DNA of 64,000 nucleotides from Desulfatiglandales bacterium (GTDB lineage Bacteria; Desulfobacterota; DSM-4660; Desulfatiglandales; Desulfatiglandaceae): assembly GCA_963662465.1 (NCBI GenBank), contig OY759599.1, positions 448,001 to 512,000 of the forward strand. The letters are read 5' to 3'. Made by a program: the position numbers and the translations under genes. A model generated the notes under the pieces. That model made no database searches and had not been told where the DNA came from. It saw only the letters and a list, made by a program, of their open reading frames with translations. Positions within the stretch are counted from its first letter, which is position 1; each line of letters begins with the position of its first letter. This document shows, piece after piece, positions 2,964 through 49,584 of the stretch.

Positions 2964-3048
2964 CACAACGACAAGCTCACCAGCGCCTCCTCCGGCCCCC
3001 GCCGGGACCGCAGGACTATCAGGCGTCTGGTGCAGCGTTTGGTTCGGT
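2964..3048 (-). other. attC-like integron cassette recombination site
   Basis: Minus strand ACCGAAC-CAAAC-GCTGCACCAGACGCC...GGCGCTGGTGAGC-TTGTC-GTTGTG: R''/L''/L'/R' layout with extrahelical bases, at the 3' end of a TA cassette. Confidence 0.7.
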
Positions 3049-3312
3049 TTTCTGCGTATTTCTAATTTGGTTTATCTTTTCTTGAACCCAAAGATTGACT
3101 AGGGTTTCTCCACTAACACCATGTTCTTGAGCTGTTTGCCTAATTATGGATGAAAATTCCTTGTCTATAGGATAGTACCTTTGCTCAGACTGGATATTGA
3201 CTGTGAATTCTGCAGCCCTCTGCTCTCCAAATTCAGAGGCATCATGCTCATCCCAAAATTCACCAATTTCTTGGTAGCTGTTAGCTTTTGAAACAGAGGA
3301 TTTATCTGGCAT
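3019..3312 (-). CDS. BrnA/CopG-like antitoxin
   Basis: SYQEIGEFWDEHD motif plus C-terminal RHH-like AQEHGVSGETLVNLWVQEK; coupled to the BrnT-like gene. Confidence 0.75.
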   Translation of the reverse strand: MPDKSSVSKANSYQEIGEFWDEHDASEFGEQRAAEFTVNIQSEQRYYPIDKEFSSIIRQTAQEHGVSGETLVNLWVQEKINQIRNTQKTEPNAAPDA

Positions 3313-3583
3313 ATTTATTCCTTTCTTTCTGTGTCATGTCTCTTGCTGAAACAATAATGGCACGTTTGTCCTGAGTGTACACAAAAAAGACGCTTAATAG
3401 ACGTTCTGCGTCAGTTTGGCCAAAAGCGGCAAAAACATCTTCGCCATATCGATGACCTGCCTCTTTATATTGAAATTTAGGCCGGTTTTCAAGTACCTCA
3501 ACAACTTCATTTTCTTTCACATCATGTTTCCATAGAAGTTTTTCGACAATGTCTTCAAGCCAGATTATTCTAGTGATTTCCAA
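3302..3583 (-). CDS. BrnT-family toxin
   Basis: IVEKLLWKHDV...EVVEV...FGQTDAERLLSVFF...IVSARDMTQKER. Confidence 0.8.
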   Translation of the reverse strand: MEITRIIWLEDIVEKLLWKHDVKENEVVEVLENRPKFQYKEAGHRYGEDVFAAFGQTDAERLLSVFFVYTQDKRAIIVSARDMTQKERNKYAR

Positions 3584-3679
3584 AAGGTCTCCTAACTCTA
3601 AAGATAGTGAATAATCTATGTATAAAATACATTTTTAATGGGCTCATATATCATAGATAAAAGCGAAGGTGGCCTCCGT

Positions 3680-3733
3680 TTGCTGCTATGGAGCGTTAGC
3701 GGAATAGCCGTCAAATGCAAGGTATAGTTCAGA
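3680..3733 (-). other. Truncated attC-like site
   Basis: Minus strand TCTGAAC-TATACC-TTGCATTTGACGGCTATTCCGCTAACGCTCCATAGCAGCAA just after the 313-aa gene; L'/R' half missing. Confidence 0.45.
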
Positions 3734-3760
3734 ATTACCCTGCAATAGGAACTATTTTGC

Positions 3761-4702
3761 TTACAGGTATCGCTGGGTAAGATACCGAATATAGTCCGGG
3801 TGTTCCGTTCGTAATTTATTTGCCAATTTAACAATTAGCTCCTGATATGTAAGCGAATGGAATTTAATACCATCGCTTTTTGTAACTTCGGTAAACTTGA
3901 GAACCTCATCCCGATGCTGTTTTCCCTGATCACCAAAAACGTCGTACCAAAGGTACAACAAACGGAAGCCAGCCTTTCCGAACTGCTTTTTTAGCCCAAG
4001 GATATGTTTCACAAGTTGGGCAGGGTGTAAATGAAGAAATTCATGATCATCGGGGGATATGCCCCCTGCGAAACGCAATAAGTTTGGAATGTCTGCCCAA
4101 GTATCATCGAGGCAAAGGTACTTTGCTTTGAGTCCGCCATGTTTATATACACCATATGCTTCAGAAAATTTGCATTCAATTGCGAACCTCTTAATTTTTG
4201 CTGATGGTGCATTGTGGATGACTACGTCAATATTTGGATGATAACCAAATTTGTCATTGATGGGATATTTTTCCTCAAAATATAAATTTCTTGATACCTG
4301 TGAACCCACACGGCAAAGGCCACACTGAGCTGCAATCACCGGAGTCGCGTTTATTGATTTCCAATATTGAAAAACATTGACCCCCAGCGCTGATGACGAA
4401 TGAACAGCCTGCATTTTGCCAGGAAATTCCGCTGCACCCAGTTCGCCACCATCCCCAGCCGCAAATGACTTTTGGACGTCAGCTAATAGTGGCTGAAAGA
4501 GGTTCTGATTCAACTCGCAAGTATAAGCAAGACGTCCTCGCTTGCCCTTGCTTCCGGTAAGCTTAATGCCGGAATTTATTGCCCATGCCGTTTGTTTCGA
4601 TAAGATGTACTCGTATCCGTTCATTATTTTCACCGACTCCGAACCAATGATTATACAGTTTTTTTTGTCATCAAATATCCGTTCCCGCATGTTATCCGAC
4701 AA
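3761..4702 (-). CDS. Putative PD-(D/E)XK restriction-endonuclease-like protein
   Basis: HSSSAL, FEEK, PNIDVVI, FAIECKFSE, AQLVKH motifs; AT-rich; start may be MNGYEY (~4624). Confidence 0.65.
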   Translation of the reverse strand: MSDNMRERIFDDKKNCIIIGSESVKIMNGYEYILSKQTAWAINSGIKLTGSKGKRGRLAYTCELNQNLFQPLLADVQKSFAAGDGGELGAAEFPGKMQAVHSSSALGVNVFQYWKSINATPVIAAQCGLCRVGSQVSRNLYFEEKYPINDKFGYHPNIDVVIHNAPSAKIKRFAIECKFSEAYGVYKHGGLKAKYLCLDDTWADIPNLLRFAGGISPDDHEFLHLHPAQLVKHILGLKKQFGKAGFRLLYLWYDVFGDQGKQHRDEVLKFTEVTKSDGIKFHSLTYQELIVKLANKLRTEHPDYIRYLTQRYL

Positions 4703-4827: not shown

Positions 4828-4978
4828 TCTCGTTCATACGTTCTAATGTGGGAATAGTTTTGGGACGCTCCGCGTCCTGCGGCAAACTCGAAAAACACTT
4901 GTTTAAATTGGGTATATTCATGATTTAGGACACAGATCGTTCAGAGGTGGGTTCCAACATAGAGCATTTGAACAGGAT
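4828..4978. repeat. Degenerate REP doublet (same family as 5261-5398)
   Basis: CTCGTTCATACGTTCTAATGTGGGAA..GGACGCTCCGCGTCC..GGACACAGATCGTTC..GTTCCAACATAGAGCAT. Confidence 0.5.
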
Positions 4979-5089
4979 ATGGAGATCGTAATTCCAAAAT
5001 GAGAATTGCTAATGTCCGGTTTTTTCTCTGAGGCTCATTATGATTTGCCGGTTGAAAGCCGGCATGAAATTATTATTGACAAAGATAAA

Positions 5090-5105
5090 TGGCATGGCGT
5101 ATGCA
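5090..5105 (+). promoter_or_regulatory. Possible sigma54 promoter
   Basis: TGGCATG-GCGT-ATGCA, close to TGGCACG-N4-TTGCW; followed by a GGAGG RBS and ATG at 5159 with no convincing gene. Confidence 0.35.
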
Positions 5106-5260
5106 TTCCGTATATTGTGCGTATTTGTAATATTGAACATCTAATAGGAGGGCATATCATGATTCCAGTTCCGACAGAATCAATTATAAATTGCGGCAAT
5201 TCCGGCATCCTTCAAGAAGACTGTGAAGTAGTTTACACTTTCTTGTTACGCTTGGGGCTC

Positions 5261-5398
5261 CTCGTTCCCACGCTCTGCGTGGGAACGCACTTTGGACGCT
5301 CTGCGTCCATCAATCATTATGGGCAATAATAAAAGTCCTTTGCAAGGGCAAGGACGCAGAGCGTCAGGGACAATGTTCCCACGCAGAGCGTAGGAACG
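5261..5398. repeat. REP doublet (REPIN-like nested palindromes)
   Basis: CTCGTTCCCACGCTCTGCGTGGGAACG..GGACGCTCTGCGTCC..GGACGCAGAGCGTC..GTTCCCACGCAGAGCGTAGGAACG. Confidence 0.8.
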
Positions 5399-7301
5399 GT
5401 GCGCCTGTGAAGGCGCTTTATCAGTGCGGTGAAAGTCCGTACCGGAGTATGCCATAGCTCCGTAGCCGAAGGTAACTGCGTCGCCGCGAGGCGGGGTGGA
5501 GAGCAACCGGAGGCGAAAAGTCAGTCCGTAGGATGACGAACCCGATTCGGTGTCATGTGGTGGCGAGCCTACCGTTCCATGGTGAAGCCTGAAACTCACA
5601 GACCACGCTGTAATGGCGGTTAAAGCGATGGTTTGACGGCATGGTATGTTTGGGGTCGGAATGACTGGAAGGTAAAGCGAGATAAGCAGGGAGACCTGTC
5701 TCTTGGGGTGACAGGAGGCAGGAGTCAGAGTCCTCATAGTACCGTAGCGACAGAACGGTCCTGCTAACAAGGCTTACGGCGTGAGACCAGTACCCGCCGC
5801 CTGCGTCGGATACCGGGTTGTGAAAAGCGCGGATAGCAAAACCGTGCCGAGGGAAGGAGGATAGGAAGATAGATACGGAAAGGTCATATAGATGCAGCTA
5901 AATCAAGCAGTCTCGGCAGTGTTGGAAACAACTAAACGCGAGGCAGAAACCCGATGGGATTGGGTGGAAGCATCGGTGTGGACGGAACGTATGTTGGCAG
6001 CCCTGGGTAACGGGGTGAAAGGTGGTAAATGGTACAGTTTGATGGATAAGGTGTTCGCCTTGTCGACGCTGGAAGCGGCTTGGGGACGTGTCAAAGCCAA
6101 TAAAGGAGCGGCAGGGATAGACCGTATCAGCATAAAGCGCTTTAAGGAGCAGGCGGAGAAATACCTTGCCGAACTGCATGAAACCTTGAAAGCGGGAACG
6201 TACCGACCGGAAGCGGTAAAACGGGTATACATTCCGAAAAGCGACGGCAAACAACGCCCGCTGGGGATACCCACGGTCAAAGACCGGGTAGTGCAGGCAG
6301 CGGTTAAAATGGTTATGGAGCCCATATTCGAGCATGAATTTCTGCCGATGAGTTACGGCTTCAGGCCGCAAAGAGGTTGCAAGGACGCGTTGCGAGAAGT
6401 AGACGCGCTTATTAAGGAAGGCTACACCTTCATACTGGACGCCGACCTGAAAAGTTACTTTGATACGATTCCGCACGATAAGCTGATGCAACAAGTCGAA
6501 ATGCGCATCAGCGACGGCAAATTGCTCAATCTGATTCAAATGTTCCTGAAACAGGACGTGATGGACGGCTTGGAAAGATGGACACCGACGGGTGGTTCGC
6601 CACAAGGGGCGGTAGTCAGCCCCTTGCTTGCGAATATTTACCTGCATCCTCTTGACAGCCTGATCGCGGAATCAGGTATGCGGATGGTGCGTTACGCGGA
6701 CGACTTTGTTATCCTCAGCCGCAGTCAAACGGAAGCGGAGAATGCTTTGCAAAAGGTACGGGAGTGGGTACAGGCTAATGACCTGAGCTTACACCCGGAC
6801 AAGACGCATCTTGGCGACTGTCGACAAAAGGGTCAGGGATTTGAATTCCTGGGATACCGGTTTGAGGCAGGAAAGCGCTGGATACGCAGTAAAAGCCGTA
6901 AAGCCCTTCGTGATAAAATCCGGGAAGAGACCCGGCGCAAACGTAGCGGAAGTATGGAAAGCATCATTGATGATCTGAACCCCATGCTCGAAGGCTGGTT
7001 TGGTTACTTCAAACACGCCTACCGCACTGAGTTTGCGGCGGTGGATAAGTTTGTCCGCCGACGCTTACGCGCCGTATTATTGCGTCGTAACAAACGCAAG
7101 GGCTGGGGCAAAAGCCTTGAAGTCCACCGCCGCTGGCCGAATGCCTACTTCGCGAAAATCGGGCTTTTCACTATGCATGAGGCCCGGTTAGCAGCGTGCC
7201 GATCCCGATGAGGAAACTATCGACCGGAGAGCCGTGTGCGGGAGAACCGCATGCACGGTTCGGAGGGAGGGGAGAGCCAAGAGGCTCTTTCCTACCCCTA
7301 T
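5399..7301 (+). mobile_element. Group II intron copy 1 (1903 bp, bacterial class E/F-like)
   Basis: Starts GTGCGCC, ends ACCCCTAT; domain V GAGCCGTGTGCGGGAGAACCGCATGCACGGTTC; boundaries agree with copy 2. Confidence 0.95.
5892..7211 (+). CDS. ltrA: Group II intron reverse transcriptase/maturase, no endonuclease domain
   Basis: NKGAAGID, RPLGIPTVKDR, SYGFRP, PQGAVVSPLLANIYL, RYADD, FLG, GWFGYF. Confidence 0.95.
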   Translation: MQLNQAVSAVLETTKREAETRWDWVEASVWTERMLAALGNGVKGGKWYSLMDKVFALSTLEAAWGRVKANKGAAGIDRISIKRFKEQAEKYLAELHETLKAGTYRPEAVKRVYIPKSDGKQRPLGIPTVKDRVVQAAVKMVMEPIFEHEFLPMSYGFRPQRGCKDALREVDALIKEGYTFILDADLKSYFDTIPHDKLMQQVEMRISDGKLLNLIQMFLKQDVMDGLERWTPTGGSPQGAVVSPLLANIYLHPLDSLIAESGMRMVRYADDFVILSRSQTEAENALQKVREWVQANDLSLHPDKTHLGDCRQKGQGFEFLGYRFEAGKRWIRSKSRKALRDKIREETRRKRSGSMESIIDDLNPMLEGWFGYFKHAYRTEFAAVDKFVRRRLRAVLLRRNKRKGWGKSLEVHRRWPNAYFAKIGLFTMHEARLAACRSR

Positions 7302-7353
7302 AGCCCACAAAAAAATCAAAGTGTAAACTACAAAATGAAGGATGTCGCAATTC

Positions 7354-7857
7354 TTATTCGGCAACGTCATGCTGACAGACGCGACATTTCCGTGAACCTC
7401 TGAATAGCGGTTCGCCGCAGGAAGGGCAGTGGTATCGTTCGCATTCAGCCCGTGCCCATTCCACACTCCCTTTTTGCTCCCCATATTCAGCCACTTTGGC
7501 GCGCCATAAGGGAATTGCCCGCTTTGCAACCCTTACGCCTATGGCATATCCAAAATTTTCCACCAGCGTACATGGCCATTCATCACATTGATGGCAGGAA
7601 TAGTAACCTTTTGATTTTACGCAACTTCTTATTTTGCACTGTTGACAATATCTATAACGCTTTTTCGGAGGGTCCGGTTGCATGCATCCATAGCATTCTG
7701 TTTCTTCAGGTCTGGTTCCGTAAACGCTACCCATGACGGCCTTTAATTTTTCATTTTTGTCTCTTGTCGCAATGTAGATGCCGCACGCACCGCAATAAAG
7801 CCCGCATGGCGCCATTAAATCTCTATTTTGGATCTCTTTTTCAGTCCATCCTTTCAT
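7354..7857 (-). CDS. Cys-rich DUF3795-like protein
   Basis: APCGLYCGAC, CYGC, CKIRSC, CHQCDEWPC motifs plus C-terminal zinc ribbon. Confidence 0.75.
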   Translation of the reverse strand: MKGWTEKEIQNRDLMAPCGLYCGACGIYIATRDKNEKLKAVMGSVYGTRPEETECYGCMQPDPPKKRYRYCQQCKIRSCVKSKGYYSCHQCDEWPCTLVENFGYAIGVRVAKRAIPLWRAKVAEYGEQKGSVEWARAECERYHCPSCGEPLFRGSRKCRVCQHDVAE

Positions 7858-8101
7858 GTCGTTATCCCCCTGTATTAAAGAAGCTTGCCATATGAATACT
7901 GATGATGTCTTTCACTGCTTGTGACTGAAAAAATGGTCGGCATTCCGTTGTTCCTGATTGTTCTTTTGTATATGGGATGACGGGAAATCTTTTTTGATAT
8001 TTTTCGGTCACAATTAGCACTATGATTTGGTCTTACTGGTGGAGAAAGGGTAGCATGGCAATATCGATAAGCAGAGACATTGGAAAAAATGGTTTGGGAA
8101 G

Positions 8102-8965
8102 GTGGATCAAATGGAAACAACGGTGGAGCAACTGGTGATTGAAGCGGTGGCGGGCAGTCGTGAATCCCTTGAAGAAATCATTCGGCGTATTCAAGGAAAG
8201 GTGTATGGTCTGGCGTTGCGAATGCTGTTCCATCCGGCGGATGCCGAGGATGCAACCCAGGAAATTCTGATCAAGGTGATTACCCATCTCAAAAGTTTTC
8301 GCTTTGAAGGACCCTTCAACGCCTGGGCCATGAAAATTGCGGCCAACCACCTTCGGTCCGTTCGCAGGGGGCGCGTGGAAAAAAAAGAATTTACCATGGA
8401 AAAGGCCCAAGGAATTATCGATCGCACCGAGGCCATGGGCTGGTTCTCCGATCTTCCGGAAGCGCCTGAGCCCTTGATGGAGGTGGAGATGCGGTCCGTC
8501 TGCACCCAGGCGTTGCTTCTAGCCCTGGATCGCGATCACCGGATGGCCTTTATTTTGGGGGTGGTCATGGATGTTACGAGCAGTGAAGGGGCATTTATCC
8601 TGAGCATTAACCCCGCTGCATACCGTAAGCGTCTTTCCCGCGCGCGCCACAGGGTCACTGATTTTCTGAGCAGAAATTGCGGACTGTTCGACGGCGCCAA
8701 TCCCTGTCGCTGTACCGCCGTTTTGAAAGGACACTTGAAACGAGGTTGGATTAATCCTCAAAAGCCTCTTTTTGCTGACGAAAACAGTGGTGATCTGGAA
8801 GGAAACGAGGTATTGGGCACTTATATGAAGGAGCTGGATGAACTGGGCCGGGTCTCCGCCCTTTACAAAGCCTCTGTTTTGGGTGAAGGGTCCTCCGACT
8901 TCTCGGGGCTGGTGAAGGAGTGGGTGGAAGCAGGAGAATATCGCGTTTTTTCCAAACTTCATTGA
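8102..8965 (+). CDS. ECF sigma factor with Cys-containing C-terminal extension
   Basis: DAEDATQEILIK region 2, AYRKRLSRAR region 4, NCGL...CRC extension. Confidence 0.9.
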   Translation: MDQMETTVEQLVIEAVAGSRESLEEIIRRIQGKVYGLALRMLFHPADAEDATQEILIKVITHLKSFRFEGPFNAWAMKIAANHLRSVRRGRVEKKEFTMEKAQGIIDRTEAMGWFSDLPEAPEPLMEVEMRSVCTQALLLALDRDHRMAFILGVVMDVTSSEGAFILSINPAAYRKRLSRARHRVTDFLSRNCGLFDGANPCRCTAVLKGHLKRGWINPQKPLFADENSGDLEGNEVLGTYMKELDELGRVSALYKASVLGEGSSDFSGLVKEWVEAGEYRVFSKLH

Positions 8966-9030
8966 GATAGGGGTGATTTTCAGGAACTTGGCGGCCTCCC
9001 GGTGAGGCCGCACGATTATCTTTTTCCGCT

Positions 9031-9828
9031 CTACACCAGTTTGAGTTCTTTCAGGCCCTTTGTCATTAGTTCCGGCGGCGCCTTCAGGGACATTCCCTTG
9101 GCGCTTTTGATCTGCATGCCGCGCATCTTGAGATTTGTCAGGGTTTCCGTCATTTTCAGGGTCATGGCCATGGGATCCAGGATGGGTGCTCCTTCCAGTT
9201 CGAAAATACCTTTAACTGGAAAGATGGGGGAAATCAGGCCGCAGCCGGCGATGATGACTTCCGCCCCGTCGGCCAGACACTCCCGGGATATTTCCATGAA
9301 ATTATCGATAATTTGATTATAATTCCCCCCCATCAGATCCCCGATCATGCTTTCAAGGGGCAGGGTCATGGACCTTACCGGCTTATGTGAAACGGCGAAA
9401 GGCGCAAATCCCAGGTTGATCAGATGTTCGGTCATGAAAGATACCCACACCGGCTCGCTGGTCACCACGGCAAACTTCCGGCCCATCAGGGCGGCCATGT
9501 GCATGGTGGCTTCAGCGGCCCCCATCACGGGGATGGACAGCAGATTATTCCCCATTCGGACGCCGCAGTCAAAATAGCAGGCCCCGGATATCCCATCAAA
9601 CCCATCCTTTTCCGCCTTCAGCATGGCCTTGACGATTTCCACCTCATTGGGGCCCCTGAACCCCTCAAAGCTCATTAACGCCGGATCCTTGAGGCCTTCC
9701 GGGACATCCCGAATTACCACTTCCGTATTCTCATCTTTGGCGAGATTATAGCTTTGCATCAACAAATCATAATAGTTGCCGAAAACCGTCTCCGGCATGG
9801 AAATCGGTAATAACGCGCAAATTTTCAT
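9031..9828 (-). CDS. Asp/Glu/hydantoin racemase family protein
   Basis: GACYFDCG and IIAGCG catalytic-Cys motifs, IPVMGAAEA. Confidence 0.85.
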   Translation of the reverse strand: MKICALLPISMPETVFGNYYDLLMQSYNLAKDENTEVVIRDVPEGLKDPALMSFEGFRGPNEVEIVKAMLKAEKDGFDGISGACYFDCGVRMGNNLLSIPVMGAAEATMHMAALMGRKFAVVTSEPVWVSFMTEHLINLGFAPFAVSHKPVRSMTLPLESMIGDLMGGNYNQIIDNFMEISRECLADGAEVIIAGCGLISPIFPVKGIFELEGAPILDPMAMTLKMTETLTNLKMRGMQIKSAKGMSLKAPPELMTKGLKELKLV

Positions 9829-9953
9829 GTGCTGCCTCCCTTTTTCACAGGTTTTATTCCGTTATTGTTTTACAGCCTAAGCAGAAAAGACTCAAGAATC
9901 AATTATAAATTGCGGCAATTCTCGTTTTGGGATTATGAGCTTTTCCCAAAAAC

Positions 9954-9978
9954 CGTTCCCACGCGGAGCGTGGGAACG
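9954..9978. repeat. REP palindrome, target of intron copy 2
   Basis: CGTTCCCACGCGGAGCGTGGGAACG, continued by AG after the intron. Confidence 0.8.
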
Positions 9979-11881
9979 GTGCGCCTGTGAAGGCGCTTTA
10001 TCAGTGCGGTGAAAGTCCGTACCGGAGTATGCCATAGCTCCGTAGCCGAAGGTAACTGCGTCGCCGCGAGGCGGGGTGGAGAGCAACCGGAGGCGAAAAG
10101 TCAGTCCGTAGGATGACGAACCCGATTCGGTGTCATGTGGTGGCGAGCCTACCGTTCCATGGTGAAGCCTGAAACTCACAGACCACGCTGTAATGGCGGT
10201 TAAAGCGATGGTTTGACGGCATGGTATGTTTGGGGTCGGAATGACTGGAAGGTAAAGCGAGATAAGCAGGGAGACCTGTCTCTTGGGGTGACAGGAGGCA
10301 GGAGTCAGAGTCCTCATAGTACCGTAGCGACAGAACGGTCCTGCTAACAAGGCTTACGGCGTGAGACCAGTACCCGCCGCCTGCGTCGGATACCGGGTTG
10401 TGAAAAGCGCGGATAGCAAAACCGTGCCGAGGGAAGGAGGATAGGAAGATAGATACGGAAAGGTCATATAGATGCAGCTAAATCAAGCAGTCTCGGCAGT
10501 GTTGGAAACAACTAAACGCGAGGCAGAAACCCGATGGGATTGGGTGGAAGCATCGGTGTGGACGGAACGTATGTTGGCAGCCCTGGGTAACGGGGTGAAA
10601 GGTGGTAAATGGTACAGTTTGATGGATAAGGTGTTCGCCTTGTCGACGCTGGAAGCGGCTTGGGGACGTGTCAAAGCCAATAAAGGAGCGGCAGGGATAG
10701 ACCGTATCAGCATAAAGCGCTTTAAGGAGCAGGCGGAGAAATACCTTGCCGAACTGCATGAAACCTTGAAAGCGGGAACGTACCGACCGGAAGCGGTAAA
10801 ACGGGTATACATTCCGAAAAGCGACGGCAAACAACGCCCGCTGGGGATACCCACGGTCAAAGACCGGGTAGTGCAGGCAGCGGTTAAAATGGTTATGGAG
10901 CCCATATTCGAGCATGAATTTCTGCCGATGAGTTACGGCTTCAGGCCGCAAAGAGGTTGCAAGGACGCGTTGCGAGAAGTAGACGCGCTTATTAAGGAAG
11001 GCTACACCTTCATACTGGACGCCGACCTGAAAAGTTACTTTGATACGATTCCGCACGATAAGCTGATGCAACAAGTCGAAATGCGCATCAGCGACGGCAA
11101 ATTGCTCAATCTGATTCAAATGTTCCTGAAACAGGACGTGATGGACGGCTTGGAAAGATGGACACCGACGGGTGGTTCGCCACAAGGGGCGGTAGTCAGC
11201 CCCTTGCTTGCGAATATTTACCTGCATCCTCTTGACAGCCTGATCGCGGAATCAGGTATGCGGATGGTGCGTTACGCGGACGACTTTGTTATCCTCAGCC
11301 GCAGTCAAACGGAAGCGGAGAATGCTTTGCAAAAGGTACGGGAGTGGGTACAGGCTAATGACCTGAGCTTACACCCGGACAAGACGCATCTTGGCGACTG
11401 TCGACAAAAGGGTCAGGGATTTGAATTCCTGGGATACCGGTTTGAGGCAGGAAAGCGCTGGATACGCAGTAAAAGCCGTAAAGCCCTTCGTGATAAAATC
11501 CGGGAAGAGACCCGGCGCAAACGTAGCGGAAGTATGGAAAGCATCATTGATGATCTGAACCCCATGCTTGAAGGCTGGTTTGGTTACTTCAAACACGCCT
11601 ACCGCACTGAGTTTGCGGCGGTGGATAAGTTTGTCCGCCGACGCTTACGCGCCGTATTATTGCGTCGTAACAAACGCAAGGGCTGGGGCAAAAGCCTTGA
11701 AGCCCACCGCCGCTGGCCGAATGCCTACTTCGCGAAAATCGGGCTTTTCACTATGCATGAGGCCCGGTTAGCAGCGTGCCGATCCCGATGAGGAAACTAT
11801 CGACCGGAGAGCCGTGTGCGGGAGAACCGCATGCACGGTTCGGAGGGAGGGGAGAGCCAAGAGGCTCTTTCCTACCCCTAT
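9979..11881 (+). mobile_element. Group II intron copy 2 (1903 bp)
   Basis: Near-identical to 5399-7301; GTGCGCC...ACCCCTAT. Confidence 0.95.
10472..11791 (+). CDS. ltrA: Group II intron reverse transcriptase/maturase
   Basis: Same protein as 5892-7211 except V->A in SLE(V/A)HRR. Confidence 0.95.
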   Translation: MQLNQAVSAVLETTKREAETRWDWVEASVWTERMLAALGNGVKGGKWYSLMDKVFALSTLEAAWGRVKANKGAAGIDRISIKRFKEQAEKYLAELHETLKAGTYRPEAVKRVYIPKSDGKQRPLGIPTVKDRVVQAAVKMVMEPIFEHEFLPMSYGFRPQRGCKDALREVDALIKEGYTFILDADLKSYFDTIPHDKLMQQVEMRISDGKLLNLIQMFLKQDVMDGLERWTPTGGSPQGAVVSPLLANIYLHPLDSLIAESGMRMVRYADDFVILSRSQTEAENALQKVREWVQANDLSLHPDKTHLGDCRQKGQGFEFLGYRFEAGKRWIRSKSRKALRDKIREETRRKRSGSMESIIDDLNPMLEGWFGYFKHAYRTEFAAVDKFVRRRLRAVLLRRNKRKGWGKSLEAHRRWPNAYFAKIGLFTMHEARLAACRSR

Positions 11882-11938
11882 AGGGAAACTCAGAGAGAGA
11901 AGAAAAGGATGTTAAAAGGCCTTTTTAGCAGGTTATTG

Positions 11939-35952: not shown

Positions 35953-38900
35953 TGGGCATTCGAGATTTTTTTAAGAAAGTGCTGTCCACCGGGCAGGCCT
36001 CTATGGTCGAAAAGGCCGATGGCCTTTATGCCTCGGGCGATCTTGAAGGGGCGGTGAAATGCCTGGAAGAGGCCCTTCAGAGCCGGCAGGAGAGCGGCAA
36101 GTCCCTGGCGGTCATGAGGCAGCGATTCAACTCCTATTCCGAAGAACTGCACCTGAAACGCCTGAATGAGCATCGAAACACCCTCGCAGGCGCCGCCTTT
36201 GATACAGGGAACTACAGCCGTATTGAGGGGATATTGTCAGCCCTTGATCGGGGGATCAAAGAATCCGTTTACCGGGGAAAGCCCAAGGCGGAAGCAGAAG
36301 CGCTCTACAAGGAATATTTGGGACCGTTTCAGGACTTGCAGCGGCAGGTTCAGAAGGAAAAGCATGGGGGAATTATCGACCGGATCAGGACGTTGTCGCC
36401 GGAAGAGGAGGCGGATGAATTTGTTACCCTTGTGGAAGAGCTGCGGCGCATGGGCGGCCGCTTGCCCGAAGAGCTTCACGGGGCCTGCAAGATTGCGGAA
36501 GAAAGGAGCTACGTTCTGCCCGACGACCTTCGGGAATTCGCCAATTTTGTGATTGAACGAAAGCTCGGAAACGGAGGATTCGCTTCCGTGTTTCTGGCCT
36601 CCTCCAAAGGGATCGGGTATCAGTCGGCCATCAAGATATTTGCTCCCCAGCCGACGCTGGTGCGGGAATCGGGGATGTCTCTTGGCGAACTCAAAGACCG
36701 CTTCAAGCGGGAGGCTCGCATCATGCTCAGGCTTTCCGAAGAAAGGACCCGTGGGATTGTTAACGTCAGACATTCGGATTTTTACCGGGGGAAACCGTAC
36801 CTTCTCATGGACTATTACCCCAGGAATCTTTCCGACCTGATCGGCGGCGATGAAGAGCTGCTTCAAGGATGCCATGGAAAATTCCTCAGCTATGAAGAGG
36901 GCTTGCCCCTTATCCAGGGTATACTGACGTCTATCCATGGTCTCCACAATCGCCCGTCGCCCATCATTCATCGGGACCTCAAGCCCCCCAACATCCTGCT
37001 GGATAAGGATAACCGCCCCCATATCGCCGACTTCGGTTTGGCCCGTGAAACGAGTCGGATAGATTTACTGTCGAGCGCCTTTCAAAGTTCCACTGGAACC
37101 AATTTTGCTTCCCAATACTACGGTGCTCCCGAGCAGCGGGGGGGCTTCAAGGAAGCCGACCAACGGGCCGACATCTTCTCCTTGGGAGTGATGATTTACC
37201 GCATTTTGACCGGTCGGCTTATCGGTTTTCACGATCAGGAACCCCTGGAATATTATGTAAAGGATCTGAACGCAGAAATGGCTGGTCGTATGAACGACCT
37301 TCTCGGTAAAGCCACCCGGGTGGAACCGAACCAGCGGCTCTCGGATGTTTCTACCTTGCTGGAATTGTTTTCCGCGGAACAGACCACTGTTCAAGTAAAC
37401 GAACCCGTTGCATCCCATTTCTCTGCCGCCGATCAATTTTGCGCCGCCCTGGAAATGGCCTATGCTTTTGCTCCCGATGGGGAGCTTCCAGAGAGCGCAC
37501 GAACAATCGTTGAAGTAAAGGCCCATGAGCTGGGAATGGATGAAGGGGACGCAAAGGCCCTGGAAAAGGATTTCCGATCCCGCCTGGGCCTGGGAGAAGG
37601 CGGACAGGAACGGGTGGTTTCGGCCACTGCCGGGGCCTCGTCCAGCGCTGTTTCCGAAAAAGGCGCGGGAGAGCTCAGCATCACGTCGGAACCTGAGCTG
37701 GCAACAGTTTTTGTGGACGGTGTAGAGCGGGGAAAGACGCCGGTCACCCTGTCGCGCATCGGGGTGGGGAAGCGCACCATCCGTTTGAAACTGGACGGGT
37801 ATTTCCCTGTGAGCAGAATCGAGAGAGTGGCCCCGGACCAGGAGACGAAAATTCATGTGATACTGGAGCCCCAGCTTGGAAGCATCAAGGCCGAGGTCGA
37901 AACCTTCTCGGATGACTATCCTTGCCGATTTTATCTGGACGAAAGCCTCATGGGCAAGACGCCTCTCATGGTAGAGGATGTTTCTGCCGGCGTACACGCC
38001 TGGCGGTTGGAGGCGGAAGCGCACCAGGGGGAAAGCGGGGAGGTGGCGGTAACGCTGGATGAGGAGGCAAAGGTGGTAAAAAAACTGGAGCCTCTGCCGG
38101 GCCGTATTTCTATAAAAAGCGTCCCATCGGGAGCATCCGTCTGGCTGAACGGCAAAAATACGGGGAAGAAAACCGACGGGGAATGGAAATTTAAACCGGG
38201 AACCTGCCGTCTTTTGCTGAAGTTGCCGGGCTATGTGGACGCCGAAAGAGAACTGAAACTCCTGTCCGGAGGTGTTCTGGAAGAGATGTTTACGCTGGTG
38301 CGAAACGCGGCGAGACTCAGTGTGACCAGCGTGCCGGAAGGGGCGGACATTTGGTTGGATGACAAGGACACCGGTCAGAAAACAGATGCGGTACTGGAGG
38401 TGTCGTCGGGTAAACACACGATAGTGTTGAAACGAAACGGCTACCAGGAAGCGAAAAAGGAAGTGGAATTGACTCCGGATAAATTTCAGGAAGTGGAGTT
38501 CCGGCTCAAGAAAGGGAAAACACCTGCTCAGGGCCGTTATGCAGCCATAGGGAGCAACATCGTAAAGGATACTAAAACCGGCTTTGAGTGGCTAACGGGG
38601 CCGGACGAGGACACGACCTGGAAAAAGGCGAAATCCTGGGTGGCCAACCTGAAAACAGATGGCGGTGGCTGGCGCATGCCTACCATGGATGAACTGGAAG
38701 GTATTTATGAGAAGGGGCTTGGGGATCGGAACATGACCCCGTTGCTGGAAACCACTGGATGGTGGGTATGGTCAGGTGAAACTTCAGATTCCTCTGCTGC
38801 CGGGAACTTCGACTTCCACGACGGCAACTGGTTTTGGAGCTGTGGCTCCACCAACAGCAGGGTTTTTGCGGTGCGTTCCCGAAGCGAAGGGATAACGCCT

Positions 38901-39305
38901 GCCGGGTTACAACCTGACAAAATACACGCAGAAATCCGTTATTCAGAAATAGGCAACAAAGTTGTGAAAGACATGAAAACCGGCCTTGAGTGGTTGGCAG
39001 GTGCTGACAAGGACACGAACTGGAATGAGGCGAAAGCCTGGGTGGCTAAACTGAAAACAGATGGAGCTGGCTGGCGTATGCCAAGTATGGATGAACTGGA
39101 AGGCATCTACGAGAAGGGGCTTGGGGATCGGAATATGACGCCGCTTTTGAAGACTACCGGCTGGTGCGTATGGTCAGGTGAAACAAAGGGTTACGCCAAT
39201 GGCAGGGACTTCAACTTCTACCGCGGCGGCAGCTATTTGCTCAACCGTTACGGCGAGCCCCACAGCAAACGGGGGTTTGCGGTGCGTTCCCGAAACGATG
39301 GATAA
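35949..39305 (+). CDS. Hanks-type Ser/Thr kinase with PEGA repeats and two C-terminal DUF1566/Lcl (CLec) domains; putative DGR target
   Basis: LGNGGFASV, AIK, HRDLKPPN, DFGLA, APEQ; about four ITSEP/SVPSGA-type PEGA repeats; 2x KDxKTGxEW...WRMPxMDEL...WSG...FAVR. Confidence 0.9.
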   Translation: MMGIRDFFKKVLSTGQASMVEKADGLYASGDLEGAVKCLEEALQSRQESGKSLAVMRQRFNSYSEELHLKRLNEHRNTLAGAAFDTGNYSRIEGILSALDRGIKESVYRGKPKAEAEALYKEYLGPFQDLQRQVQKEKHGGIIDRIRTLSPEEEADEFVTLVEELRRMGGRLPEELHGACKIAEERSYVLPDDLREFANFVIERKLGNGGFASVFLASSKGIGYQSAIKIFAPQPTLVRESGMSLGELKDRFKREARIMLRLSEERTRGIVNVRHSDFYRGKPYLLMDYYPRNLSDLIGGDEELLQGCHGKFLSYEEGLPLIQGILTSIHGLHNRPSPIIHRDLKPPNILLDKDNRPHIADFGLARETSRIDLLSSAFQSSTGTNFASQYYGAPEQRGGFKEADQRADIFSLGVMIYRILTGRLIGFHDQEPLEYYVKDLNAEMAGRMNDLLGKATRVEPNQRLSDVSTLLELFSAEQTTVQVNEPVASHFSAADQFCAALEMAYAFAPDGELPESARTIVEVKAHELGMDEGDAKALEKDFRSRLGLGEGGQERVVSATAGASSSAVSEKGAGELSITSEPELATVFVDGVERGKTPVTLSRIGVGKRTIRLKLDGYFPVSRIERVAPDQETKIHVILEPQLGSIKAEVETFSDDYPCRFYLDESLMGKTPLMVEDVSAGVHAWRLEAEAHQGESGEVAVTLDEEAKVVKKLEPLPGRISIKSVPSGASVWLNGKNTGKKTDGEWKFKPGTCRLLLKLPGYVDAERELKLLSGGVLEEMFTLVRNAARLSVTSVPEGADIWLDDKDTGQKTDAVLEVSSGKHTIVLKRNGYQEAKKEVELTPDKFQEVEFRLKKGKTPAQGRYAAIGSNIVKDTKTGFEWLTGPDEDTTWKKAKSWVANLKTDGGGWRMPTMDELEGIYEKGLGDRNMTPLLETTGWWVWSGETSDSSAAGNFDFHDGNWFWSCGSTNSRVFAVRSRSEGITPAGLQPDKIHAEIRYSEIGNKVVKDMKTGLEWLAGADKDTNWNEAKAWVAKLKTDGAGWRMPSMDELEGIYEKGLGDRNMTPLLKTTGWCVWSGETKGYANGRDFNFYRGGSYLLNRYGEPHSKRGFAVRSRNDG
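38536..39303 (+). repeat. Tandem duplicated Lcl domains, each ending in a variable region and an identical 19-bp tail
   Basis: Conserved scaffold to SGET, divergent 38781-38864 vs 39183-39275, then TTTGCGGTGCGTTCCCGAA in both. Confidence 0.8.
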
Positions 39306-39392: not shown

Positions 39393-39605
39393 TTGGCGCA
39401 ATACGAACATCTTCCCATATATAAAGCGGCTTTTGACCTGCTGGTGTATTTTGAAAAGATCGTGAAAAATTTTTCGAGATACAACGAATACACCCACGGA
39501 ACGGCATTGCAAGAGATTTCCGCTCGTTCTCACTCTCTTCGTGGGAACGAGCGGAGCTTTTGGTATCTGACATCTTTGGTTCGGAATATCGATTTTTCAC
39601 GTTAA
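39393..39605 (+). pseudogene. avd: Truncated DGR accessory variability determinant (Avd, four-helix bundle)
   Basis: MAQYEHLPIYKAAFDLLVYFEKIVKNFSRYNEYTHGTAL matches the Avd N-terminus; resemblance stops at a REP hairpin. Confidence 0.7.
39520..39554. repeat. REP palindrome at the avd breakpoint
   Basis: CCGCTCGTTCTCAC-TCTCTTC-GTGGGAACGAGCGG. Confidence 0.7.
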
Positions 39606-40017: not shown

Positions 40018-41766
40018 TTGAAAACTATAAAAATCACATCATCTACGATCACAAGCCGGGACAATTTAGAAAATCACGTTCCTACGTTCCGCGTGGGAAT
40101 GGATTACAGTAAAGCCCTGGCTAAACTGTCCCGCTTTGTGGAGCGATTGGGAAAAATGCAACGTGTCAAAAATGATGAAGGAACTCGTGGAGATGAAAAC
40201 CGGGTGGAAAATAGTGCTTCGGATTATGAACAGGTGCCGCTAAACCTTGTTTTCGATTATCCGGTTAAATGGTCAAAATTCAAAGTGCTTCGGGATTTCG
40301 TGCAGAATTTCTATGATGCGGTAGGCTGGCGAAACTGGGATGTTCGATTTTCCTGGCGGATTGCTGAAGACAGGTTGTCTCTGTTCGTAAGAGATGTCGG
40401 TTTCAGCTATGACTGGCTTCTTCATATCGGGGCATCGACCAAACGCGATGATGGAGGAACCTATGCAGGCTTTTTCGGAGAGGGTTTCAAGATTGCTTCC
40501 CTCTGTGCTCTAAGGGACCATTCTTGGAGTGTCACTATGCATTCCCGCAACTGGGAATTGAAAGTTGTTACGGCCGTCATTGCAATCGATGAACAGTGGA
40601 TCGATACGTTGGCCTACAATATCCAACGACGGGATGAAGAAACGCGGGATACGGCCCTTCACATATCGCCTTTCCATGATTTAAACATTTTGAAGGCAGT
40701 GCTTCAAAGTTTCTATTATCCTGGAAACCCTTTGTTTGGTAATAAAATATGGGAGTCAGAAAGCGCTTCGGTGTATTTTCGGTCGGGTATTCAAAAACCC
40801 GCGGGATACCCGCAAACATTTGATGACAAGGGGCGGGGAATCGTATTTGGTGCTTACCAGGCTTTGGGATCGTTTCAATATCCCCTGATTTTCGCTTTGC
40901 ACAGTTTCCGATATGATGATCGCGAACGAAATACTTTTTATCGCATGGATGTGGTCAAACTAATCCATGAAGTTGCATCCAAACTGCCGCCGGAAGCGTC
41001 GATGGTGGTCCTTCTTGCGCTGAAGAACAGATGGTACGACCGTCCCAGGAAGAAATACGATTTCGAATCATGGCATCGCATCATCAGCACGCTGGTTCGG
41101 AATATCTCCACATCACCCGAACTTATGGCCCTGTGGAGAGAAACCAATCCACATCTGCTGGCGGCGCGGCAGGTGAGGCGAAAGGATATAGATCTGTACA
41201 ATCGGAGACAACAGGCACTCGAGTGGTTGAGAACGTCTAAAACGCGGTATCGTCTGGTGCAGTCCGCGTTTATTTTCATGGGCTATCCCACGGTCGAGGA
41301 GGCCTGCGAAGCAGATGACGGATTCAGTGTGGCCCATGAGCCTGTTGTGTCCGAGATAGGGTATATTCGCATGCTGGAGAAAGTGGCGCTGTGTTTACTC
41401 TCCGACCTGTTTTCAACAATTGCACTGCCGCCATGTAAAATCATCGAAAGTAAAAACGCGGTGTGGCAGGGGATGACAGTGATCATACCCCGGAAGGACC
41501 GAAGCCTGCGCTTTCGAGGGTTGCCCGTTCGGTACCTCTTGCCTTATGTTGCACTTAAACAGGAATTACTCATACCCGATGCATTTAGCCGTGCCCTCAG
41601 TACGTATCTTCATGAAATAGCGCATATGTTCGGTGCTGAAAGATCAGCTGCATTCAGCAATGCTCTGACCGAGCTGATGCATCTTGTTGTAACTCATTCA
41701 GAAATGATCGCTGAATGTCGAATGGGATGGGAAGTATTCTCGAAAAAACATTCGTCCACGGCATGA
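40018..41766 (+). CDS. GHKL/HATPase-like ATPase with C-terminal HEXXH metallopeptidase motif
   Basis: LRDFVQNFYDA, DVG, IGASTK, GFFGEGFKIA; C-terminal YLHEIAH; true start probably downstream (~40156). Confidence 0.7.
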   Translation: MKTIKITSSTITSRDNLENHVPTFRVGMDYSKALAKLSRFVERLGKMQRVKNDEGTRGDENRVENSASDYEQVPLNLVFDYPVKWSKFKVLRDFVQNFYDAVGWRNWDVRFSWRIAEDRLSLFVRDVGFSYDWLLHIGASTKRDDGGTYAGFFGEGFKIASLCALRDHSWSVTMHSRNWELKVVTAVIAIDEQWIDTLAYNIQRRDEETRDTALHISPFHDLNILKAVLQSFYYPGNPLFGNKIWESESASVYFRSGIQKPAGYPQTFDDKGRGIVFGAYQALGSFQYPLIFALHSFRYDDRERNTFYRMDVVKLIHEVASKLPPEASMVVLLALKNRWYDRPRKKYDFESWHRIISTLVRNISTSPELMALWRETNPHLLAARQVRRKDIDLYNRRQQALEWLRTSKTRYRLVQSAFIFMGYPTVEEACEADDGFSVAHEPVVSEIGYIRMLEKVALCLLSDLFSTIALPPCKIIESKNAVWQGMTVIIPRKDRSLRFRGLPVRYLLPYVALKQELLIPDAFSRALSTYLHEIAHMFGAERSAAFSNALTELMHLVVTHSEMIAECRMGWEVFSKKHSSTA

Positions 41767-48540: not shown

Positions 48541-49584
48541 TTGCAAAGTAAAAACGGAACCGATTATTTACACAATTACGATTTCATTGTAAAATGGCTT
48601 GCGGAGGCGCTCAAAGGGCAAACGCTGGATGCTATCGGGATCAAGACCGGCCAGGTGGAAGAGGTGTTTGCATTTGAGCCGGTGGATATTGCTGTGAAAG
48701 CAGGGCGGGTGGATGTGATGGTGCGGGATGATGCGGGCGCCTTGTTTCACATTGAGGAACAGCGGGACCTGAAAAGGTCGGACCTGTATCGTTTTGCTGC
48801 GTATCATTTCCTGGGCGCCAAGAAATGGGGACCGGGAATGGTAGATGTGATTCTGGCCTCCGGAGACGTGCAGGCAGGAACTCGAAGCCTCAAGACCGCC
48901 AGCGGGGTGTATGAACCCGTGGTCCTTGATTTCAGCGATCGAAACGGGGAAAAGCGGCTGGCGGAAATCCGAGCGGAGGTGAAAGCCGGGACATTCAAGA
49001 ACTGGCTGGAGTTGGTGGTATTGCCTCTGTATGGCAAGGCAAAAGGTGAGGAACGCGCCCGGTTCGTGGAAGAGGTGGTCCGTTTTGAAGTGGCGCTGTT
49101 TCGGGCAAACAAGATATCGGCTCGGCTGACCGCGGCGACGTTGATTCTGTCGAATAAGATGATGGACAAGAAACGCCTCAAAGCGATGTGGGAGGAGATA
49201 AAGATGCTGGATATTATAGAAATTGCAAGAGAAAAAGGGATAGAGGAAGGTTTGGATAGAGGCAAGAGCCTGGGGATTGTAGAAGGCAAGAGCCTGGGGA
49301 TTGTAGAAGGCAAGAGCCTGGGAATTCAGGAAGGCTTGGATAGAGGCAAGAGCCTGGGTAGTGTGGAAATCGCCCGGGAGATGCTTCTGGATCTGTTGTT
49401 TGAGAAGTTTGGCGCTGTGCCGGATGAAATGCAGGATGAGATTGGGCGGATTGATTCCCTGTTCAATCTGAAAACGCTTTTCCGGCAGGCCTTTAAGTGC
49501 AATGACATGGAAGCCTTTGGGGGGATGGTACACCGGGTTCGGGGGGTATCGGAACATGGGGATAAGCGCGGGAAGGTTTCGTGA
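48541..49584 (+). CDS. Rpn-like PD-(D/E)XK protein with repetitive C-terminus
   Basis: HNYDFIVK, RVDVMV, FHIEEQ; GKSLGIVE repeats; TTG start after GGAGG. Confidence 0.7.
   Translation: MQSKNGTDYLHNYDFIVKWLAEALKGQTLDAIGIKTGQVEEVFAFEPVDIAVKAGRVDVMVRDDAGALFHIEEQRDLKRSDLYRFAAYHFLGAKKWGPGMVDVILASGDVQAGTRSLKTASGVYEPVVLDFSDRNGEKRLAEIRAEVKAGTFKNWLELVVLPLYGKAKGEERARFVEEVVRFEVALFRANKISARLTAATLILSNKMMDKKRLKAMWEEIKMLDIIEIAREKGIEEGLDRGKSLGIVEGKSLGIVEGKSLGIQEGLDRGKSLGSVEIAREMLLDLLFEKFGAVPDEMQDEIGRIDSLFNLKTLFRQAFKCNDMEAFGGMVHRVRGVSEHGDKRGKVS
49244..49359 (+). repeat. Coding 12/24-bp tandem repeats
   Basis: GGCAAGAGCCTGGG occurs four times, encoding EGKSLGIV units. Confidence 0.8.

Follow-up and report, generated by a model that had tools for sequence, protein, structure and literature searches.

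An endonuclease-less group II intron at REP hairpins in a Desulfatiglandales genome

Two intron copies and their REP target

We analyzed a 64,000-nt stretch of the forward strand of contig OY759599.1 (positions 448,001 to 512,000; assembly GCA_963662465.1) from a Desulfatiglandales bacterium, hereafter the window. It carries two copies of an endonuclease-less group II intron, each inserted at the same position of a hairpin that belongs to one family of repetitive extragenic palindromes (REPs). Hairpin-directed homing is known for class C (IIC) introns; the present case is probably a variant of it that homes into REPs, in a lineage with an AGC triad in domain V (D5). The copies start 4580 bp apart and mismatch at exactly 6989 (C/T) and 7123 (T/C). 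Each is preceded by GGAACG and followed by AG, and the outer flanks are unlike, so that an initial annotation of the window was right in describing two 1903-bp copies with two substitutions, a GGAACG|AG junction and different surroundings. The features of the two insertions, including the exon-binding sites (EBS) of the intron and the intron-binding sites (IBS) of the target, are as follows.

5261..5398, no strand: inverted REP doublet of ~140 bp, REPIN-like (REP doublet forming hairpins); its last two bases (AG) are displaced to 7302-7303; DNA fold z -10
5375..5398, plus: target hairpin of copy 1; IBS1 is 5393-5398 (GGAACG)
5399..7301, plus: group II intron copy 1, 1903 bp, GTGCG...AT; skipped exactly (1903 bp) in a contig of sequencing run X1
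5451..5455, plus: alpha loop (GCCAT), covarying with 5613-5614 (z 8.2 and 6.6)
5573..5578, plus: EBS1, five positions strongly supported and the sixth weakly
5599..5635, plus: stem-loop presenting alpha' (5613-5617); its 5' arm, 5599-5609, holds CACGCT (5604-5609) and pairs with 5624-5635
5649..5649, plus: EBS3 (T), pairing with A at exon +1
5892..7211, plus: intron-encoded reverse transcriptase/maturase (intron-encoded protein, IEP), 439 aa, YADD, no endonuclease domain; TIGR04416 at 409.7 bits
7229..7261, plus: domain V, AGC triad at 7230-7232, 5-nt loop GAGAA
7262..7301, plus: domain VI (D6) and 3' end, bulged A at 7294
7302..7303, plus: 3' exon start AG of copy 1 (IBS3 is the A), end of the REP
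9954..9978, plus: target REP hairpin of copy 2, a single unit; IBS1 is 9973-9978
9979..11881, plus: group II intron copy 2; open reading frame (ORF) 10472-11791, EBS1 10153-10158
11882..11883, plus: 3' exon start AG of copy 2

The element has the GUGYG...AY ends of a group II intron, D5 and D6 with a bulged A (Rfam score 62.4 bits) and a reverse transcriptase-maturase ORF in domain IV, and it has no HNH domain. The Rfam D1-D4 families reached at best 27.8 bits against a threshold of 32. The only Pfam matches of the IEP are RVT_1 and GIIM, with no endonuclease family, in agreement with the endonuclease-less intron first proposed. For domain I, global minimum free energy (MFE) folding gave no useful structure (z -1.5), and covariation was used instead.

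The genome is a single contig of 8.16 Mb. A strict pattern finds the REP hairpin 69 times in it and a looser pattern ~83 times, whereas 2 Mb simulated with an order-3 Markov model contained none. REPs are frequently inverted doublets ~120 bp apart (spacings 111-120 and 53 bp), and the REP was found in 10 of 10 genomes of the same genus. Each arm of the doublet at copy 1 consists of a large hairpin and a GGACGC-NNN-GCGTCC hairpin, and the same arms flank a REP-associated tyrosine transposase (RAYT) in relatives. The intron inserts two bases inside the outer end of the REP, which reads CTCG/CGAG and is neither a GTAG nor a CGTC tag; it seems closer to the terminal inverted repeat type of PMC3733652. 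The RAYT of same-family genomes is a 177-aa protein matching NF047646 at 95.6 bits (cut-off 80). Its seven loci have inverted REPs on both sides within ~60 bp in three cases, one close REP in two and none close in two. At L346:1082-1800 (G053:C316), L352 and L354 the RAYT lies between double-hairpin repeats and is barely detected by Pfam Y1_Tnp (E 2.6e-4); this RAYT is likely the autonomous partner of the REP family. By these sequence criteria the target is a RAYT-associated REP. The initial annotation had suggested looking for a cognate RAYT, which is thus present in same-family genomes; a query of the window genome with the 177-aa RAYT found none, and none of the 30 Y1_Tnp matches there has a REP on both sides. 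A 337-aa Y1_Tnp gene with a REP just past its stop was rejected as the RAYT, its three paralogs having no such REP.

Several other repeats accompany the REPs. Two degenerate, empty REP copies lie at 39522-39551 and 40077-40105. A ~50-bp repeat begins in the 3' flank, at 7302-7350; the genome contains seven or more related sequences, several of which come after GGAAYG. A ~230-bp repeat at 4951-5182, possibly a transposon end or a miniature inverted-repeat transposable element, has five more genome copies (87-94% identical), and its 27-nt end piece (5176-5202) recurs exactly at 9895-9921, before the second REP.

Throughout the genome there are 13 full-length 1903-bp copies, 99.1-100% identical, at 12 loci. 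Eleven loci are one position of one REP hairpin (GGAACG|AG at ten, GGAATG|AG at one), which upholds the initial view of a multicopy REP as target, and 10 of the 12 lie outside any ATG-started ORF of at least 100 codons. One REP locus (G000:C1:1395772-1399577) carries a head-to-tail dimer with no exon between copies that differ by one base. It is best read as a re-insertion at the 5' junction of the filled site, where IBS1 is intact and EBS3 would form a U-G pair; a relative (L078:2825) has the same arrangement, again with no exon between the copies. The twelfth locus (G000:C1:2868022-2869931, minus strand) is a non-REP site directly after the ribosome-binding motif and start codon of a short ORF remnant. 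Its copy is the only one whose ORF is frameshifted: 11 bp are duplicated and 4 bp are deleted. Copies at non-REP sites had been named as evidence that would speak against REP homing, and this decayed copy is the one such case.

Two public runs bear on the activity of the intron. A contig of run X1 joins 5398 directly to 7302 at depth 29, with flanks at 31-34 and the intron at ~400, and the 30-mers flanking the site of copy 1 are unique in the genome. The filled 3' junction is crossed by a contig of run X3, which comes from a different sample under the same organism code. This evidence consists of contigs of unrecorded library kind, of which one of 171 kb suggests DNA, and the assembly may itself derive from X1 or X3. 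As far as sequence can tell, these are empty and filled alleles of one site in two public runs and the intron is recently active, as first supposed; the 13 near-identical copies are indirect evidence of it as well. The duplication is not an assembly artefact, a concern raised at the outset, given 12 distinct flank pairs and the excess depth of the intron in X1. Coverage in an RNA run (X20) was of a diverged relative only. No full-length close relative was found in 104 same-family genomes, where only fragments occur; in one genome (G076) two truncated intron 5' ends sit at the same REP position. A contig scan for the REP followed by GTGCG gave four matches, all of which were REP spacers and were discarded as introns.

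Guide pairing, hairpin geometry and site choice

Relatives were gathered in three scans that yielded 238 loci, the last two scans giving the best 80 each. Together with the window intron and six more, 181 fit the domain I profile and 136 had a 5' boundary and an EBS1 loop; these reduced to 125 distinct introns and to 109 at less than 90% identity, the dropped ones being truncated, too distant or unparsed. Named hosts of the relatives include Proteobacteria, Acidobacteriota, Planctomycetota and Verrucomicrobiota, among others. Every alignment column was then scanned for covariation with exon positions -25 to +3 in the 109 dereplicated introns, the sample for the figures that follow. EBS1 positions 5573-5577 covary with exon -1 to -5 at z 13-14.6, and 5578 with -6 at z 6.1. 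Exon positions -1 to -5 are paired with EBS1 in 0.89-0.98 of the introns, against 0.41-0.45 when shuffled, and 72 different EBS1 5-mers are represented. A stem pair of the EBS1 loop (5568-5582) covaries too, confirming the initial placement of EBS1 as CGTTCC in a stem-loop at 5573-5578. EBS3 (5649) covaries with exon +1 at z 9.7 and is Watson-Crick paired in 80 of 84 cases. Targets vary even between close relatives: L039 is 72% identical in protein, L113 is 80% identical over 232 nt of DNA, and each lies behind another hairpin that its own EBS1 matches.

Folding of the 30-nt segment that precedes the junction gives an MFE of -8.6 kcal/mol, compared with -4.0 for shuffled sequences and -2.9 and -2.6 for control windows, and 87 of the 109 segments beat their own shuffles at p <=0.05. 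In 91/109 the distance from the end of the loop to the junction is 10-13 nt, versus 4/98 control windows, and the stem above IBS1 is 5-7 bp in 90/93. The last loop base is A in 49/93. Across the clade, upstream sequence is not conserved, while the loop-to-junction distance is. A T-run follows none of the 109 upstream hairpins, and no terminator is predicted at either insertion site in the window. In nine genomes counted, the relatives' target hairpins are multicopy in 4/5 and 2/4, with up to 163 matches, and a second copy of the target hairpin occurs within the local flanks at 27 of 88 loci. Where counted, the multicopy hairpins of the relatives are other REP families.

GC skew places the origin of the window genome at ~5.77 Mb and the terminus at ~1.79 Mb, and in 11 of the 13 copies the intron sense lies on the G-rich strand, the lagging-strand template. 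A comparison of empty and occupied REPs, as the initial annotation had recommended, covered 37 REPs with a full EBS1 match and A at +1: filled were 9/14 on the favored strand and 2/23 on the other (p 6e-4). On the favored strand, the intron is absent from all 15 REPs that mismatch at -1 (p 2e-4) and from all 24 that lack A at +1 (p 1e-5). The motif GGAACGA occurs 1025 times in the genome, with no intact intron copy outside REPs; base pairing alone therefore cannot explain site choice. By sequence, the usable sites on one strand of the window genome are nearly saturated, a pattern that speaks for targeting; a tandem re-insertion and one ectopic copy are seen as well.

A probable homing mechanism and its alternatives

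We think it probable that the intron ribonucleoprotein (RNP) recognizes the folded hairpin in single-stranded DNA at the replication fork, pairs through EBS1 and EBS3, reverse-splices and primes with the nascent strand. The proposal draws on copy number and sites, EBS1/EBS3 covariation, the absence of an EBS2 signal, hairpin spacing and strand bias, all of them shown by sequence comparison. The single-stranded DNA entered by reverse splicing would mostly be the lagging-strand template, and sites would be marked by three cues: a short DNA hairpin with its loop end 10-13 nt before the insertion point, an EBS1-IBS1 pairing of 5(-6) bp and a 1-bp EBS3-IBS3 pairing, with no EBS2. EBS1 and EBS3 fit the REP outer end GGAACG|A and so provide a few dozen mostly intergenic landing sites, and relatives have other EBS1 sequences fitted to other hairpins and REP families. 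After reverse splicing, the nascent strand would serve as primer. The reverse-splicing and priming steps are adopted because they are established biology of endonuclease-less and IIC introns, as passages of PMC10190682 and PMC8919778 describe. The IIC cryo-EM structure suggests, by analogy, that the hairpin folds physically and is bound, and melting of the stem bottom to free IBS1, fork-coupled priming and an unharmed host would complete the picture.

Several observations weigh against hairpin-directed homing. The relatives share ancestry, so that counts across the 109 introns are not independent, and the leading and lagging strands are assigned from GC skew alone. The 10-13-nt geometry is absent in 18/109 relatives. 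In 67/93 cases 1-5 nt of IBS1 lie within the stem, where the IIC structure has a spacer instead; the hairpin could thus be a by-product of REP targeting. The ectopic non-REP copy lies at a site with 5/5 EBS1 pairs and A at +1 and hardly any hairpin (-2.3 kcal/mol). Finally, A occupies -12 at every one of the 11 filled REPs, and on the favored strand 9/11 REPs with this A are filled versus 0/3 without (p 0.03), so that there may be a sequence contact near the loop.

The last two of these points would also fit homing by sequence only, through EBS1, EBS3 and maturase contacts with upstream bases, in which case the hairpins would reflect selection that retains only insertions in intergenic REPs, strand exposure or fork stalling, and genic insertions would be purged. 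We regard this as unlikely: what the clade conserves is the loop-to-junction distance and not the upstream sequence, and none of the GGAACGA sites outside REPs holds an intact copy, while REP sites on one strand are nearly saturated.

Homing of the IIB type by EBS1, EBS2 and EBS3, with the hairpin incidental, is very improbable. The initial annotation had assigned EBS2 to CACGCT, pairing with AGCGTG in the REP, and passages of PMC3753933 describe the IIE and IIF introns, which have similar RNA, with an EBS2. The position of CACGCT was correct, and at 5 of 11 filled REPs it is exactly complementary to exon -12 to -7, with the A at -12 common to all 11. Its exon partner does not hold, however: the filled sites read AGCGTG five times, AGCATG five times and AGCGTA once, the last at copy 1 itself (5387-5392), leaving 6/11 mismatched. 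In register, CACGCT and the exon give z -1.2 to 0.9 at all six positions. CACGCT pairs instead with 5624-5630 inside the intron, where 5/6 bases are mutual-best covarying (z 6.1-10.4) and the fold agrees, and CGCT is conserved in relatives although their exons differ. The column scan gave no EBS2 signal at exon -7 to -25 (best z ~4.2 among 9576 tests), and an alignment-free search scored 19/109 against 20.3 permuted, no excess, where EBS1 of the same introns as control scored 71 against 25.9.

Passive spread with the REP unit, by RAYT-driven REPIN movement or recombination and with no retrohoming, is hardly credible and already largely refuted: loci 2293020 and 6533869 do have more than 100 bp of REP-unit flank in common, but most loci differ in REP variant and spacer, the window genome yielded no cognate RAYT, one site shows precise presence and absence of 1903 bp, the tandem dimer consists of non-identical copies, and the strand bias follows intron sense.

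Lineage, known systems and neighboring elements

To place the IEP, a quick IQ-TREE phylogeny of 70 rows was built, with support from the Shimodaira-Hasegawa-like approximate likelihood ratio test (SH-aLRT) only and no bootstrap, and with labels from Table_3 of Miura 2022. References were four of class C, two of E and four of F, plus D, G1 and CL1, with no g6 reference. The IEP and 29 relatives form their own clade (30 rows, SH-aLRT 100), which is sister (94) to a group comprising the four class C references and terminator-associated Bacillota introns. The four class C references group (96) without the window intron, and the E, F, D, G1 and CL1 references stand apart from the clade; class E, an initial guess, was ruled out by this tree. 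Among structures in the PDB the IEP is closest to IIC maturases, the best match being GsI-IIC (6AR1). D5 could be located in 84 clade members, and in 80 of these it starts with GAGCCG; a CGC triad is typical of IIC introns in passages of PMC7923331. A relative 62% identical (NZ_CP022993, 23112-24969, on a plasmid) is 'Unclassified' in Table_3, in a row with no U1, U2 or U3 subdivision, and falls inside the clade as L298; two other 'Unclassified' references fall elsewhere. This seems to be an unclassified lineage near class C that is no member of class C, E or F and works like IIC. The AGC triad had been taken to set the intron apart from terminator-seeking IIC introns, which stands as to class and fails as to mechanism, in that the lineage appears to target as IIC does.

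Two groups of introns deserve separate mention. Five Bacillota introns (L084, L086, L090, L097 and L099), 42-45% identical to the window IEP, are preceded by hairpins with a T-tail and make up a separate clade that excludes the class C references. L298, L299, L148, L155 and L249 form a sub-lineage with a GTACG 5' end behind a small hairpin, and L298 is plasmid-borne between tyrosine-recombinase genes.

Class C introns have been described by cryo-EM (E.r.I1, in passages of PMC10190682) and as IIC-attC introns (likewise PMC7923331). The window lineage shares with them the absence of an endonuclease domain and of EBS2, a short EBS1 with EBS3, a stem-loop 5' of the site (here predicted), lagging-strand-template bias and the closest IEPs. 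It differs in its AGC rather than CGC triad, the 5-nt D5 loop, its separate clade, an EBS1 of 5-6 bp rather than 3-4, and a larger domain I with an alpha' stem-loop. Its stems are 4-11 bp, GC-rich, overlap IBS1 and have no T-tail, in contrast to the ~12 bp plus spacer of IIC, and the usual IIC target is an intrinsic terminator. According to passages of Miura 2022 (PMC8919778), g6, U1 and U2 are close to class C, frequently follow predicted terminators immediately and occur on the lagging strand; RNA structure, EBS analysis, REP targets and hairpin geometry do not feature in those passages. With classes E and F the window intron shares alpha' at the tip of the DId3 stem-loop and a 5-nt D5 loop (passages of PMC3753933), as well as the lack of an endonuclease domain and a length of ~1.9 kb (PMC3753933 and PMC3552965, in part). 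The EBS2 described for those classes gives no signal here, the window IEP does not group with the two E or four F references, few as these are, and the passages of both papers state no hairpin targeting.

Among other systems, REP-targeting insertion sequences (IS; passages of PMC1525189) are likewise mobile elements landing in a multicopy extragenic palindrome, and in relatives an NF047646 RAYT is flanked by the target described here, as in the RAYT/REP and TIRtron systems of PMC3733652, in whose main text the word 'intron' is absent. The invader in the present case differs from REP-targeting IS and from RAYT/TIRtron systems in being a retroelement with an RNA guide. A literature search, thin on subscription journals, turned up nothing on REP homing by group II introns.

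We tentatively suggest, as a possibility that falls somewhat short of a favored conclusion, that these introns are a widespread undescribed class intermediate between IIC and IIB, with an IIE/F-like ribozyme, IIC-style recognition of a DNA hairpin at a fixed loop-to-junction distance and a 5-nt guide repeatedly retuned to host REPs, and with REPs and REPINs as main niche. If true, this would offer a natural test of EBS2 evolving to replace a DNA stem, as well as a retargetable integration system that reads shape plus 5 nt. In passages of Chung et al. 2022 (PMC10190682), only IIC introns are said to have the DNA stem-loop motif, and EBS2 is proposed as its mimic; a lineage with a larger IIE/F-like ribozyme and no EBS2, at a fixed distance behind hairpins, makes that proposal testable. 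The lineage may also explain the unclassified types of Miura 2022 behind 'terminators', since the hairpins here have no T-tail and several are REPs. Two mobile systems would be linked, RAYT/REP populations supplying the targets that a retroelement consumes, and the 72 natural EBS1 variants suggest easy retargeting.

The window holds a second, unrelated group II intron at 698-~2950 (minus strand), with an Rfam D1D4-7 match at 2771-2911 and an IEP (821-2305) that has RVT_N and groups with CL1. CL1-type introns at G000:C1:3330337 and 3332562 are stacked too, as are the copies of the REP-site dimer. Between this intron and the REP, on the minus strand at 3019-4702, lie genes for a CopG-like antitoxin (3019-3312), a BrnT-type toxin (3302-3583) and REase-ARP (3761-4702). 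Farther along, 38517-39218 is a direct repeat, diverged and spaced at 402 bp, and 49237-49368 is a short 24-bp tandem repeat.

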